Shown piece after piece: positions 22,471 through 28,430 of a stretch of DNA of 64,000 nt. The position numbers were made by a program, and so were the translations under genes. This DNA comes from Dictyostelium discoideum (Eukaryota): assembly GCA_000004695.1 (NCBI GenBank), contig CM000151.3, positions 1,696,001-1,760,000 of the forward strand, read 5' to 3'. The stretch's first letter is position 1. Each line of letters opens with the position of its first letter. The notes beneath the pieces are model-generated. The model saw only the letters and a program-made list of their open reading frames with translations. It was not told the DNA's origin and did no database searches.

Positions 22471-23834
22471 ATGGTGGATAACTATAATAATAATAATATA
22501 TTACCAACAAATACATCTACAACTACAACTACAAATACGACAATAACACCTACACCACCACTACCACCACCACCTCCAATTTCAAATATATTAGATAATA
22601 ATAATAACAATAATTTAATAAAAAATGATATAAAGAATGATAAAGTTGCAGTATCGAATTCAAATGTTAGACCATCATCTTCATCAGTTTCATATGAAAA
22701 TTCAGATTGGAATAAGGTATATAATAGTGAAAGAGAGAAATTACATGAAGTTAATAAACAAATTTTAAATATAAAAAGACCATCAACTAGTATAGTTAGA
22801 GTTAGTCAATTAGATTCTGCAAGATTAGATGAAGAAATTTTAGATTTATTAAGATCTCAATTTATGAAAATATTTACATTTTTTAAAGTAATTTTTATAT
22901 CAAAATATATTTACATACATATATATATACAAAATATATTAATATTAATAATATTTATTATTTATTATTTATTACTTAGCCAAACTTTATACATAATTTT
23001 CAACCAGAAATTAATTTAGTATTAAAATCAGTTATATATAAATTATCAATATTTAATTTAGGTACAACGTATGGTAACCAGTTACAAAATTTGACATATA
23101 GGAATGAAAAAGCATTCGACCCAATTAGAGGTTCTGATCAATTGAATAAATTAACAATGAGACAGAAATGGTTGTCGGGTTTGATTAATATTGGTGGTGA
23201 ATGGTTATGGACTAGAATCAATCGATATTTGATTAACAACAATTGGAGTGAGCATCCACCTAATGATATAAGAAAAAAGTTTTGGAACTTTTTAAATTTT
23301 GCAGAGAGTGCTTATAAAGCTTTGGCATTATTGAATTTCTTGACATTCCTATTCAATGGGAAATATGTAACATTAGTAAACCGTATACTACATATGAGAT
23401 TAGTGTATGCCCATCCAACATTGTCTAGAAACATTTCATTCGAATATATGAATAGATTATTGGTTTGGCATGGTTTCACTGAATTCATATTATTCATTAT
23501 GCCATTAATCAATATAGATCGTATAAAATCATTTTTATATCGTTTATTAGTTAAAACTTCTTTTGGTAATAGTAGTGGTAATAATAATAATACAGCTTCA
23601 AATCCATTACAACAATTACAAAAACAACAATTATTAATTCAACAACAACAAATGGCTTTAGCAAAATGTCCAATTTGTATGAATGATCCAATTAGTATGC
23701 CTTATTCAGCTGATTGTGGTCATCTTTTTTGCTATTATTGTATTAAAACTTCTTGTATGATTGATTCCTCTTTTACTTGTCCACGTTGTAATTCTTTAAT
23801 TTCAAATATTAAAAGATTTTCAATTCAAGATTAA
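22471..23834 (+). CDS. pex2: Peroxisome biogenesis factor 2 (C3HC4 RING peroxin). Two exons: join(22471..22887, 22980..23834).
   Basis: C-terminal RING CPICMNDPISMPYSADCGHLFCYYCIKTSCMIDSSFTCPRCN aligns closely to human PEX2 ([41 protein letters not shown]). Pex2/Pex12 N-terminal domain is present. Donor GTAATT at 22888, acceptor ttag at 22979, phase 0. N-terminal S/T/P/N-rich region. Confidence 0.8.
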
Positions 23835-24045: not shown

Positions 24046-24247
24046 ATGTCTGAAGAAAATAATCATAAAGAAAAAAGGTAAATATTTGTAAATATAGTAT
24101 TTATTAATTTTATTACTATTTTTTATATATTAATACCAAATAGTAAAAATGAAATTAAAAAAGAAAAAAAAAAGATTGAAAAAGAAAAAAAGATTACAGA
24201 ATTAAAATCAAAAAAAAAAATAAATGAAAAAAATAATACTATAAATT

Positions 24248-24279
<32 letters not shown>

Positions 24280-25600
24280 TTTAAAAATAAAAAATGGGGT
24301 GAAATAAATAATGAAAATTATAAAGAAATAATAAAAAATAGATTTGTTAAAGAATGGAGTAATATTTCAGATTTAAATGAATCATGTGTTGGAAAATATG
24401 TATTAATTAGAGCTCGAGTTTCAAATATTCGTTCATTTGGTAATAGTCTTTGTTTTTTACAATTAAGAGACGGTTTATCAAGTATTCAAGCTGTGATATC
24501 AAAAAATGATGAAAATAATTCAAAATCAATGATCCACTTTATCAATTCAACAATTACAAAAGAATCAATAATTGATATTGAAGCAATTTTAACAAATTCA
24601 TCAACACCAATTGAAAGTTGTATAATTAAAAATTTAGAATTAAAAATTTATTCATTATTTTTACAATCAAAATCAAATTCATCATTACCTTTACAATTTG
24701 ATGATCTTTCAAAACCAACGACATATCAAAATTATGATGATAATGGTTATACTTATGTGATTCCATTAAATAGTAGATTAAATAATAGGTGTTTAGATTT
24801 ACGAACTTTTTATAATTTATCAATATTTAAAATTCAATCAGCTATATCAAATTTATTTAGGGATCAACTATTAATAAATGATTTCATTGAAATTCATTCA
24901 CCAAAGATAATAAAACAATCAATTAATGAAAATTCATTTAAATTAAATTATTTCAATGAAATTGCATATTTATCAGAATCAACACAATTTTATAGACAAT
25001 TAGCAATTGTATCTGATTTTAAAAGGGTGTTTGAAATTGGGCCTGTATATAGAACTGATTTAGGTCATACTCATCGTCATTTAAATGAATTTACAAGTTT
25101 AGATTTTGAAATGACATTTAAAGATCATTATCATGAAGTTTTAGATTTTTTAGATAATTTAATGATTTCAATATTTAAAATTTTAGAAACAAATTATGAA
25201 AATGAATTAAAAATTATTAATAATTATCAATTACAATTTGAAAAATTTAAATTTTCAACTAAAACACCAAGATTTACATTTAGTGAAGTGAAATTAATGT
25301 TAATTGAATTTTCTGAAAATGAAAATAATAAATTTTGTATGGAGTTATTTGATTATTTAAATGTACAAGAAGAAAGAATTTTTGGAAAAATTGTTAAAGA
25401 GAAATTTAATGTAGATTATTATATCATTGAAAAACCATCTTCTGAATATCAACCATTTTATATAATGCCAGATTCAAATAATGAAAAATTATTAAATTCA
25501 TTTCATATTTATATTAATGGTGAAAAAATTGGTTCAGGTTCTCAACGTATTCATGATTGGAAATTACTTGAAAAAAGATATAAAAATTATTATATAAATC

Positions 25601-25664
<64 letters not shown>

Positions 25665-25821
25665 TAATATTGAAAATTATATTAATATTTTCAAATTTGG
25701 TTGTTCACAACATGCTGGTTGTAGTATTGGTTTAGAACGTTTGGTTATGGCTTATTTAGGTTTGGAAAATATTAGAAAAGCTAGTTTTTGCCCTCGTGAT
25801 CCAACAAGATTAACTCCATAA
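24046..25821 (+). CDS. Aspartyl-tRNA synthetase paralog, class IIb, divergent copy. Two exons: join(24046..24077, 24144..25821), about 570 aa.
   Basis: Same architecture and intron position as the downstream copy (intron after codon 11, phase 2). Motifs are altered: motif 2 is YRTDLGHTHRH (canonical FRAEN...), the flipping loop is SESTQFYRQ (canonical QSPQLYKQ), motif 3 is GCSIGLER, and a poly-N (about 25) insertion precedes motif 3. Ends ...FCPRDPTRLTP as AspRS does. Has the Lys-rich eukaryotic N-terminal helix. Confidence 0.8.
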
Positions 25822-25905
25822 ATAATAATTTTAAAAAAAAAAAAATTAATAGGGTGTAAATTAAAATTTTAAAAACAAAATGTAAAAGAATTCTAATTAT
25901 TTATT

Positions 25906-25946
<41 letters not shown>

Positions 25947-26203
25947 TTTAAATAAACCATAATTTTAATAATTAAATAAATAAAGAAAAGATAACAAACA
26001 CTGTGTAAAGTATCCAAAAATACTACATATATTCAATCCCTAACACCACAATGTTGTTTTTTTGGAAAATTCCCAACAATCAAAATTTATTTTTTTTTTA
26101 TTTTTTTTATTTTTTTTTTTTTTATTTTTTTTTTTTCATTTCAATATAAATTTTTTTTTTTTTTTTTTAAATTCATTTCACTTTTACTTAAATAATTTCC
26201 AAA

Positions 26204-28012
26204 ATGTCAGAAACTACACCAGTTCCTGTTGGCGAAGCAGGTGAAAAAAGGTAACTAAAAATTTTAATAATAAATAATAATAAAAATAATAATAATATTA
26301 ATATTTTTATTTTTTCTTGTATTAAAAGTGCTACAGCATTAAAAAAAGAACAAAAGAAATTAGAAAAAGAGAAAAAGATAGCAGAAGCTAAAGCAAAGAA
26401 AGCCGCTGAGAAATCAGCAGCAAGTGGTAATAGTGGTGAACAAAAGAATGAAAAGAAACAAGAACAAGTTGAAGAGAATAATAGTAATTGGGGTGAATTA
26501 CCAATGAATCAAAGTAAAGAAAAGATTACAAGAGAATGGACAGATGTATCACAATTGACAGAATCATTAGTTGGTAAATCAGTATTAATTCGTGCACGTC
26601 TTTCAACAAGTCGTTTACAAGGTGCCAATCTTTGTTTTGTACAATTAAGAGATGGTTTATATACAGTTCAAGCAGTTGTTGCCAAAGGTGGATCCAACTC
26701 GAAATCAATGGTGCAATTTGTTGGACAAGTTCCAAAGGAATCCATTGTTGACGTTCAAGCAACCGTTGTCTCAACCAGTGTACCAATTGAAAGTTGTACA
26801 CAAAAATCCGTAGAATTACAAGTTTCATCATTTTTCATCGTATCAAAATCAACATTACTCCCATTACAAATTGAAGATCTCTCAAGAGCCCAACCATTAT
26901 TGGATAAGCAAGAAGACGATCTCAAGCAATTGGAACAACTTTTACAAAATACCAACTTGAATGAACAAGAGAAAACCGATTTAGAAAAGAAGAAGAGTGA
27001 ATGTATTAAATTTGTAAACGTATCACAAGAGAAGCGTTTGGATAACAGAGCATTGGATCTTAGAGTACCAGCCCACCAATCTATTTTCCGTCTTCAATCA
27101 GGAGTTTGTACACTCTTCCGTGAACAATTACTCGGTGAGGGTTTCATTGAAATTCATTCACCAAAGATCATTTCCGCTGCCTCTGAATCTGGTGCCTCTG
27201 TTTTCAAATTAAACTATTTCAATACCCATGCCTATTTGGCCCAATCACCACAACTTTACAAACAAATGGCAATCTGTGCCGATTTCAATAAGGTCTTTGA
27301 AATTGGTCCAGTTTTCCGTGCTGAAAACTCCAATACTCATCGTCATTTGACCGAGTTTGTTGGTCTCGATCTTGAAATGACCTTTAAGGATCATTATCAT
27401 GAGGCTTTGGATACTTTGGATCGTTTAATGACCTCGATTTTCCGTGGTTTAGAGACTCGTTTCGCAAAGGAAATCGAATCTGTAAACACTCAATACCCAT
27501 TCGAACCTTTCAAATTCACTTATCCATCACCACGTTTCACCTTTGATGAAGCCGCTGCTATGTTGGCCGAATTAAATGACCCAGATTACATTGTAAAAGA
27601 CAATGATTTCAATACTCGTCAAGAGAAACGTTTAGGTAAAATCATCAAAGAGAAATTTGGTGTAGATTTCTTTATCGTCGATAAATTCCACGTTGAAGTT
27701 CGTCCATTCTATACCATGCCTGATCCAAATAATCCACAATGGGCAAATGCTTACGATCTCTTTATGAGAGGTGAAGAAATTTGTTCTGGTGCTCAACGTA
27801 TTCATGATCCAGAATTACTCGAAAAGAGTGCTAAATCTCATGGTGTTGTTATTGAGGATATTCAAGGTTATATCGATTCCTTTAAATATGGTTGTTCACA
27901 ACATGCTGGTGGTGGTGTTGGTTTAGAACGTGTAGTTATGCTTTATTTAGGTTTAGGTAATATTAGAAAAGCTAGTTTCTGTCCACGTGATCCAACAAGA
28001 TTAACTCCATAA
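26204..28012 (+). CDS. Cytoplasmic-type aspartyl-tRNA synthetase, canonical copy. Two exons: join(26204..26250, 26329..28012), about 577 aa.
   Basis: All class II/AspRS motifs are intact: FRAENSNTHRHLTEF, QSPQLYKQ, SGAQRIHD, GGGVGLERVVM, C-terminal FCPRDPTRLTP. There is an N-terminal OB-fold anticodon-binding domain and a Lys-rich N-terminal helix. Donor GTAACT at 26251, acceptor AG at 26327/28. Confidence 0.85.
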
Positions 28013-28430
28013 ATAAATAAATAAAAAATAAATAATAAAAAAAAAAAAAACATATATAATTATTAAATTATTACTATAACAAAAAAAAAAAACAAAATTA
28101 TTTTATTTTTATTATTATTATTATTTTAATCTTTTTTTCTTATTTTTTTTTTTTTTGAATTTGTTACAATAATAACACTATTAATGGTTGGAAAAATTCC
28201 CATTGTTCCCGTTAGTTATTTTGAGGAAAATCAATACCAAAGATTTTTTTTTTTCCGCGCTCACCGTTTTTTAATCAATAAAATTTATTTTTTTATTTTT
28301 TTTTTTTATTTTTAAAAAAAAAAAAAGAAACCAGGCTGAGAATTATAAAAATATTTTGGTTTTAAAGCTGATTTTTTTTTTTTTTTTAAATTCCAACACC
28401 ATTTTATAAATATAATATTTTAGAAAAAAA

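Follow-up and report, generated by a model that had tools for sequence, protein, structure and literature searches.

A 64,000-nucleotide stretch of the Dictyostelium discoideum genome (GenBank assembly GCA_000004695.1, contig CM000151.3, positions 1,696,001 to 1,760,000 of the forward strand) was analysed and is called the window here, with positions counted from its first letter. It carries two eukaryote-type aspartyl-tRNA synthetase (AspRS) genes head-to-tail on the plus strand, and the upstream gene, aspS2, is with a probability of roughly 60% a lineage-restricted paralogue that is AspRS-like but does not charge tRNA, that is, a pseudo-synthetase. This gene is the product of a duplication, the encoded protein has degenerated at specific sites and has an intact predicted fold, and selection has kept its open reading frame (ORF). 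From the residues that have changed we infer that AspS2 would not produce Asp-tRNA(Asp) at a useful rate, and the probable reason is that metal ligands, the aspartate-binding Lys and a functional flipping loop have been lost and that Lys is tolerated in place of Arg at one position of the arginine tweezers.

The upstream gene begins with an exon at 24046..24077 that holds the ATG, 10 codons and 2 nt, followed by an intron of 66 nt at 24078..24143 (phase 2, GT..AG, AAAAAG/GTAA...TAG/T, with slashes at the splice junctions) and by a second exon at 24144..25821 that includes the stop codon, and the whole protein is 569 amino acids long. After a spacer of 382 bp (25822..26203), which also holds the 5' region of the canonical gene, aspS1 is modelled with exon 1 at 26204..26250, an intron of 78 nt at 26251..26328 (phase 2, AAAAAG/GTAA...AG/T) and exon 2 including the stop codon at 26329..28012, giving a protein of 576 amino acids. 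The introns cut codon 11 of the upstream gene and codon 16 of the downstream gene, and because in both copies this is the Ser codon just before the Lys-rich helix, the position and the phase of the intron are homologous. The first-pass annotation of this DNA, which was made from the sequence of the window, had put the two genes about 380 bp apart with a 5' intron at the same position and phase after codon 11-16, and both statements agree with these gene models.

The upstream and downstream proteins are 47% identical (BLASTP, E = 6e-171), and in Pfam both have the tRNA-synt_2 domain and the OB (oligonucleotide/oligosaccharide-binding) anticodon domain, the upstream protein matching PF00152 (tRNA-synt_2) with E = 1e-55 and also PF01336. 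The nearest solved structures were the cytosolic AspRS of human, yeast, Entamoeba, Leishmania and Plasmodium, with E values of about 1e-98 for human, yeast and Plasmodium. By homology and by fold the upstream protein is thus a class IIb AspRS of the eukaryote/archaeal type. The downstream protein is identical at every residue to XP_645306.1 (UniProt Q75JQ1, "Aspartate--tRNA ligase, cytoplasmic 1") of D. discoideum AX4. In Table 1 of an earlier survey the pair is named aspS1 and aspS2, both genes are listed simply as aspartate-tRNA ligases and the entry for functional differentiation is '-' (PMC7414715).

The degeneration of the upstream protein was measured on 102 near-invariant columns, which are those conserved at 95% or more across 112 other diverse eukaryote-type AspRS. 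The downstream copy breaks 2 of these columns and the upstream copy breaks 24, compared to a mean of 1.06 in the 112 other AspRS (sd 1.3, maximum 6). This is far beyond chance, and all 24 breaks fall in the catalytic domain. It supports the proposal of the first-pass annotation that the upstream gene encodes a pseudo-synthetase or a neofunctionalised protein rather than a second AspRS, although the loss of aminoacylation itself is deduced from sequence. Eleven of these 24 columns show 100% invariance among the 112 AspRS, and the changes there are A288S, Q289E, P291T, K295R, E316D, D415Y (where the alignment is ambiguous by one residue), R447Q, D465H, R469N, E472K and G538S. The catalytic positions that are discussed below are substituted in none of the other AspRS sequences that were aligned.

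Roles were assigned to the changed residues by their spacing relative to the ligand complexes of Plasmodium vivax AspRS, in which the Lys corresponding to K295 binds the side chain of aspartate together with the equivalents of R479 and Q292, the Glu corresponding to E472 (E554 in P. vivax) coordinates Mg2+, and the equivalent of R314 is the motif-2 Arg (PMC12262901). The Glu corresponding to E316 hydrogen-bonds the adenine in these complexes, and the same role has been given to it elsewhere (PMC5919687). K295R, E316D, E472K and the SINENS loop described next all map onto ligand-contact sites of the P. vivax enzyme, and the substituted positions therefore do lie in the active site. The flipping loop is the SEGG loop that is located about 19 residues before QSPQ, and its Glu contacts the alpha-amino group of aspartate (PMC12262901); the QSPQ sequence itself, to which the first-pass annotation had given this name, is not the flipping loop. 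In the upstream copy this loop (24919..24936) is SINENS in place of SESGAS, which is 2 residues shorter, has no Gly and is not of the S-E-G-G type found in functional AspRS, and in every orthologue of the paralogue the loop, which is subject to indels, differs in length and in sequence. The signature QSPQxxKQ has become ESTQFYRQ (24976..24999; Q289E, P291T and K295R), so that the QSPQxxK of functional AspRS is absent, and both P291T and K295R are fixed in all the paralogues.

Motif 2, GPVYRTDLGHTHRHLNEFTSLDFEM (25039..25113), has YRTD in place of FRAE and LGH in place of NSN in the acceptor-end loop, and while E316D is fixed in all the paralogues, R314 is kept in the window but is a Lys in two other D. 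discoideum assemblies (L001 and L007). The strand that carries the metal and Asp ligands, HIYINGEKIGSGSQR (25504..25548), has the changes D465H, R469N and E472K and retains R479. The pair of acidic Mg2+ ligands that lie seven residues apart before the SGxQR strand in functional AspRS is consequently missing, having been replaced by His and Lys. Among these changes D465H is fixed across the paralogues, whereas R469N and E472K are lineage-specific, residue 472 still being Glu in the paralogues of D. firmibasis and D. dimigraforme. Motif 3 (25717..25740) is GCSIGLER and not the GGGVGLER of the canonical copy, with G538S fixed in all the paralogues, G537C confined to a subclade and R543 kept. Thus, the replacements by ESTQ, YRTD and GCSIGLER that were pointed out in the first-pass annotation are all present, and the class II arginines that it described as kept are R314 and R543, which are found in the upstream copy of the window together with P264, the class II residue of motif 1. 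The changes in motifs 2 and 3 that it cited as evidence of remodelling are real but they are the mildest ones, and it missed the strongest, namely K295R, D465H, E472K, R447Q, R469N, NSN to LGH in the motif-2 loop and the loss of a hinge insert of about 33 residues.

The modules outside the catalytic domain have been retained. The Lys-rich N-terminal helix, SKNEIKKEKKKIEKEKK (24145..24219), is predicted to span residues 2–30 and is kept in all the orthologues of the paralogue, with SKNEIKKEKKK present in all seven, and in class IIb synthetases this helix binds tRNA non-specifically (PMC3824080). In the OB-fold anticodon-binding domain (24388..24675) the Arg, Phe and Gln that are equivalent to R119, F127 and Q138 of yeast are kept in all seven paralogues, as are 8 of its 9 near-invariant columns. 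The hinge region (24685..24807) retains all 7 of its near-invariant columns, and motif 1, FIEIHSPKII (24883..24912), which is the dimer-interface motif, retains its invariant Pro; the hinge residues and motif 1 with this Pro are likewise present in all seven. When the columns kept in every one of the seven paralogues were counted, 16 of 17 non-catalytic columns (N-terminal, OB and hinge) were conserved compared to 54 of 85 catalytic columns (Fisher p = 0.019). What is seen is therefore the pattern of a degenerate paralogue, in which catalytic residues are ablated and the modules that bind tRNA are kept. The C-terminus, IRKASFCPRDPTRLTP, is identical in both copies, so that the AspRS C-terminus is kept upstream as had been stated in the first-pass annotation.

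An AlphaFold2 model was built from the exon-2 product, which covers 558 of the 569 residues. Its mean predicted local distance difference test score (pLDDT) was 86 and its predicted template modelling score (pTM) was 0.83, with low confidence only in the acidic linker and in the poly-N tract, and it aligned to yeast AspRS with a TM-score of 0.92 in Foldseek. In this model the AspRS fold of the upstream protein is intact.

Three low-complexity or insert regions of the two proteins differ between copies and species. Before motif 3, in a surface loop, the paralogue has a tract of 24 residues of the form NHN22 (25597..25668; pLDDT <50), which corresponds to the insertion of about 25 Asn that the first-pass annotation had counted among the distinguishing features of the gene. 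The tract is there but it does not define the gene, being a polymorphic low-complexity expansion whose length varies between strains and species, and which D. citrinum and D. firmibasis lack and D. dimigraforme has in a longer form; we therefore rejected it as a functional insertion. The linker between the N-terminal helix and the OB fold (24244-24279) is a runaway, species-specific low-complexity tract as well. D. discoideum has poly-Asp there and D. cf. discoideum a run of about 20 Asp, and in D. dimigraforme and D. citrinum the tract is one of about 50 to more than 100 Asn. The hinge of AspRS contacts the D-stem of the tRNA, and in the canonical gene it carries an insert of about 33 residues (LLDKQEDDLKQLEQLL...SECIK, residues 206-243, 26897..27010) that is rich in Gln, Glu, Leu and Lys and is lost in the paralogue; D. 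firmibasis has a poly-Gln run at this spot. The insert was considered as a dictyostelid-specific character and this was rejected, since besides the canonical dictyostelid genes about half of 113 eukaryotic AspRS carry it, and it is missing from 41 others that include the solved human and yeast enzymes.

Orthologues of the paralogue were located in other assemblies by tblastn on the DNA surrounding their canonical AspRS gene. A homologue search with the upstream protein had returned one close relative only (90% identity) and had missed the annotated orthologues of the group, though their genes are on record, and an exact look-up of the 569-residue protein in the protein collection gave no match. 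Among the proteins not returned by these searches were the AX4-type protein and the paralogues of D. cf. discoideum, D. citrinum, D. dimigraforme and D. firmibasis, so that a protein missing from the homologue search should not be taken to be missing from nature, and the index that was searched may hold too few of the proteins in which homopolymer tracts are long. By tblastn an uninterrupted orthologue was found in six further genomes, in each case between a Pex2/Pex12-type gene and the canonical AspRS, and the paralogue is carried by five closely related Dictyostelium species. The identities of paralogue and canonical protein to those of the window were 90% and 99.5%, respectively, in a second D. 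discoideum assembly (L001), 90% and 99.3% in a third (L007), 87% and 98.9% in D. cf. discoideum, 73% and about 96% in D. citrinum (the latter an estimate, as the raw high-scoring segment pair of 89.7% runs through the intron), 70% and 96.3% in D. dimigraforme and 57% and 94.5% in D. firmibasis. Paralogue protein evolution is thus 8–10 times faster than that of the canonical copy. L001 and L007, although labelled D. discoideum, differ from the window in both genes, with a dS (synonymous divergence) of about 0.07–0.09, and at 10% of the residues of the paralogue protein, which is almost as far as D. cf. discoideum, and this indicates a deep divergence within the nominal species.

The flanking gene serves as a synteny anchor. 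Immediately upstream of the pair, at 22471-23834 on the plus strand, there are two ORFs (22471-23019 and 23091-23834) with a C3HC4 RING finger at the end, whose orthologues in other assemblies match Pex2_Pex12 in Pfam, and the order is Pex2/12, the paralogue where it is present, and AspRS.

The fast evolution of the protein raises the question whether aspS2 is a decaying duplicate without a function of its own, a pseudogene in the making. Its GC3 (GC content at third codon positions), which is the lowest in the window, would be in keeping with decay, and so would the expanded homopolymers and the 39 indel blocks seen when the orthologues are compared. However, the ratio of nonsynonymous to synonymous divergence (dN/dS) of the paralogue, calculated pairwise by the method of Nei and Gojobori, was 0.21–0.44 in all 21 pairs, and its bootstrap upper bounds were at most 0.61 except in one nearly identical pair. 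In the canonical gene dN/dS was 0.03–0.08 with a similar dS for both genes, and hence purifying selection on the paralogue is about 6–8 times weaker than on the canonical gene. The paralogue ORF is intact in seven genomes across a dS of up to 0.56. The ORF is AT-rich, so that 6.9% of the single-base changes in it give rise to a stop codon, and at the neutral divergence between D. discoideum and D. firmibasis (d = 0.28) about 32 nonsense hits per lineage are expected under neutrality, the probability of seeing none being about 1e-14. All 39 indel blocks are in frame, and the start codon, the mini-exon, the donor AAAAAG/GTA and the acceptor AG/TA are conserved in 7 of 7 orthologues, with an intron of 66–81 nt. 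Because dN/dS is below 1, stop codons and frameshifts are absent and neither the start codon nor a splice site has been lost, the paralogue is maintained by selection and is not a pseudogene, and the idea of a decaying duplicate is effectively refuted. The disabling lesions that would mark a plain pseudogene were thus seen in none of the seven genomes, and the comparison with other dictyostelids that the first-pass annotation had proposed shows conservation under purifying selection.

Several observations nevertheless weigh against the conclusion that AspS2 does not charge tRNA. In the window's copy both tweezer Arg, the adenine-stacking Phe (F327), the motif-2 His (H323), D331 and E333 of LDxE and the second aspartate-binding Arg (R479) are all kept, and among the fixed changes several are of a conservative kind (K to R, E to D, F to Y and G to S). 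The invariant Asp seven residues before the Mg2+ Glu, D465, is one that we take to be the second metal ligand, as in the yeast, E. coli and archaeal AspRS. The dN/dS of the whole catalytic domain (about 0.36) is close to that of the OB fold (about 0.30), so that the OB fold is not clearly more constrained. Within the paralogue clade 15 of 19 ligand-site positions are invariant compared to 57% of the catalytic columns (p = 0.057). Because of this invariance, and because all seven paralogues share four fixed changes at ligand sites (K to R, E to D, D to H and G to S), the remodelled pocket may still bind a ligand of some kind and it might still catalyse. Finally, in a neighbour-joining distance tree the seven paralogues group together with a bootstrap support of 100% and branch off at the base of Dictyostelia, a point that is taken up below with the origin of the pair.

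The residues kept in the window's copy, together with the full-length architecture, the intact predicted fold and the purifying selection on the gene, are what one would see if AspS2 were a genuine second cytosolic AspRS that charges tRNA(Asp), perhaps less efficiently or only at certain stages or under certain conditions. This is what the name 'aspartate--tRNA ligase, cytoplasmic 2' implies and how the literature lists the gene (PMC7414715). We regard it as unlikely, since the 11 residues that are invariant in 112 AspRS and changed here include the aspartate-binding Lys, the Mg2+ Glu and the Asp seven residues upstream of it, since the flipping loop has been rebuilt and varies by indels, and since constraint on the gene is 6–8 times weaker than on the canonical one. 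Moreover, the motif-2 Arg is a Lys in two assemblies, and according to an analysis of the arginine tweezers of class II synthetases mutation of the tweezers abolishes function (PMC5919687).

The fixation of the four ligand-site replacements and the invariance of 15 of the 19 positions could also be explained if AspS2 were a neofunctionalised enzyme that has kept adenylation with a different substrate or mechanism, for example with His465 and Lys472 supplying the charge of Mg2+, with an aspartate analogue as substrate or with an acceptor other than tRNA. There are precedents for new chemistry derived from AspRS in asparagine synthetase A and in the fungal protein ErdS (PMC9437257). This too is rather improbable in our judgement, because the ligand-site enrichment is not significant and the site is not uniform, given that E472 is still Glu in two species and R314 is Lys in two assemblies, because the flipping loop that is needed for closure over the amino acid is variable, and because AspS2, in contrast to asparagine synthetase A, still has its tRNA-binding modules.

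The non-charging paralogue that we favour would have come about by the following course. After tandem duplication of the cytosolic AspRS gene one copy diverged fast, and its catalytic pocket was remodelled as the flipping loop became shorter and variable, the aspartate-binding Lys was replaced by Arg and the adenine-binding Glu by Asp. His took the place of the invariant Asp that we presume to be a Mg2+ ligand, and in the D. discoideum branch Lys took that of the Mg2+ Glu. The copy retained the Lys-rich N-terminal helix and the OB anticodon domain as well as the conserved residues of the hinge and the dimer interface of motif 1. AspS2 would then be a non-charging subunit with an affinity for tRNA(Asp) that forms dimers, either with a second AspS2 or with AspS1, and its role might be to modulate or sequester tRNA(Asp) or AspRS, or to sense a ligand through the remodelled pocket. 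One specific form of this, which we put forward as a speculation with a low probability, is that AspS2 is a newborn sensor or regulatory subunit derived from a synthetase, whose pocket binds aspartate, an adenylate or a related metabolite without turnover and which is paired with AspS1 or with tRNA(Asp). A bolder variant would have His465 and Lys472 replace the Mg2+ ions and make the protein a metal-independent ligase.

As for the expression of the gene, the GC content is 0.202 in the upstream gene and 0.368 in the downstream gene, in agreement with the first-pass annotation, which had called the upstream copy much more AT-rich. GC3 is about 0.064–0.067 and about 0.238–0.244, respectively, and among 20 long ORFs of the window, which have a median of 0.137, the value of 0.064 is the lowest, that of the canonical gene being 0.238. 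Highly expressed Dictyostelium genes have a known codon bias, and this together with the lowest GC3 suggests that aspS2 is expressed at a low level.

The two genes originated by a local tandem duplication, as had been proposed in the first-pass annotation. The genes are in tandem with an intron of the same position and phase, the synteny is shared by seven genomes, and at the syntenic locus of D. purpureum the Pex2/12 gene is followed by a single AspRS and no paralogue. Between positions 62 and 560 there are 11 shared-derived residues that are found exclusively in the paralogue and in the canonical AspRS of the D. discoideum group, compared to 3 sites that favour a basal position. Since the tandem layout, the single copy at the D. 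purpureum locus and the 11 residues against 3 all disagree with the basal placement in the neighbour-joining tree, we rejected that placement as long-branch attraction. We favour a duplication that took place after the lineage of D. discoideum, D. citrinum, D. dimigraforme and D. firmibasis had split from that of D. purpureum; an older origin followed by losses is less likely on this view, which for D. purpureum covers the syntenic locus only.

Gene conversion near the stop codons would explain why the two C-termini are identical. In the last 30 or so codons (27920-28012 versus 25729-25821) the synonymous divergence of the two genes is 0.13–0.29 compared to 0.5–0.9 in the core, and in D. firmibasis two species-specific synonymous variants at the 3' end are common to both copies. 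With so few sites this is suggestive only of conversion between the tandem copies.

The spacer between the genes holds a conserved GC-richer element, AACACCACAATGTTG..TTTGGAAAATTCCC..AACAATCAAAA, at 26040-26095 on the plus strand, about 130 nt upstream of the canonical ATG. It is kept in most of the aligned species of the D. discoideum group and may be a promoter element. A similar sequence, TTGGAAAAATTCCCATTGTT, is found at 28188-28207, downstream of the canonical gene, with the flanking AACAAT inverted; one exact match of this kind is not above chance. Rfam and tRNA scans of the region from 22 to 30 kb gave no match.

Among known systems the nearest precedent for the reading of AspS2 as a non-charging paralogue is SLIMP, which forms the metazoan mitochondrial seryl-tRNA synthetase heterodimer with SerRS2-alpha (PMC10570016). 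In both cases a class II synthetase was duplicated and one copy, retained by selection, lost its catalytic pocket and kept its tRNA-binding domain, or in AspS2 probably did so. However, SLIMP is ancient and widespread in animals, and its heterodimer and its inactivity have been demonstrated experimentally, whereas AspS2 is known here from its sequence and is a young duplicate that is confined to one subgroup of Dictyostelium. The active partner of SLIMP has, in a complementary way, lost its own tRNA-binding domain, whereas AspS1 is intact, with 2 of 102 columns broken. Compared to the canonical cytosolic AspRS (yeast DPS1, human DARS1 and that of P. vivax; PDB 1ASZ, 4J15 and 9M5M), AspS2 has the same order of N-terminal helix, OB fold, hinge and class IIb catalytic domain, with the TM-score given above, and it keeps motif 1, both tweezer Arg and the C-terminal PRDPxRLTP; it differs in QSPQ..K, the flipping loop, the motif-2 loop, the acidic metal ligands and one Gly of motif 3.

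A review of duplicated synthetases from 2022 gives asparagine synthetase A and ErdS as the only paralogues derived from AspRS (PMC9437257). Like AspS2 they are AspRS duplicates, and they have been repurposed. Asparagine synthetase A, however, has given up the tRNA-binding domain while its adenylation site is still active, which is the opposite of what is seen in the upstream paralogue, and ErdS kept full AspRS activity and gained a DUF2156 transferase domain. The HisRS-like (histidyl-tRNA synthetase-like) domain of GCN2, HisZ and the plant AspRS IBI1, which is the receptor of beta-aminobutyrate, are synthetase folds that bind tRNA or a small ligand for regulation, and their likeness to AspS2 is one of functional analogy only. 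AspRS has been duplicated recurrently in eukaryotes, in 14 independent events whose duplicates diverge similarly and have no assigned function (PMC7414715). For aspS1 and aspS2 that survey does not treat which active-site residues were lost, how old the duplicate is or under what selection regime it evolves, and in the literature that was searched we found no published description of active-site loss in Dictyostelium aspS2 or its aspartyl-tRNA synthetase. The gene had already been annotated and named, and what is probably new is its status as a catalytically degenerate synthetase paralogue.

It follows from this status that the protein named 'Aspartate--tRNA ligase, cytoplasmic 2' probably does not function as an AspRS and that the name is probably an annotation error. 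Its correction matters for counts of synthetase genes and for anyone who wishes to target or delete aspS1. The practical importance is moderate, as the gene is lineage-restricted, weakly constrained and probably lowly expressed and has no known phenotype. If AspS2 were indeed a sensor or regulatory subunit, it would make translation or development in the D. discoideum group responsive to the status of aspartate or of tRNA(Asp). For the synthetases as a family, proteins that resemble them and do not charge tRNA are a recognised route to new functions, as with SLIMP, HisZ and the HisRS-like domain of GCN2. To our knowledge nearly all such cases are ancient, and because of this the steps by which their active sites were dismantled can no longer be traced. 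By comparison aspS2 is young and datable and is found in a genetically tractable model organism, and intermediate states have survived, the Mg2+ Glu being still present in two species, the motif-2 Arg having been lost in two assemblies and the flipping loop still changing.

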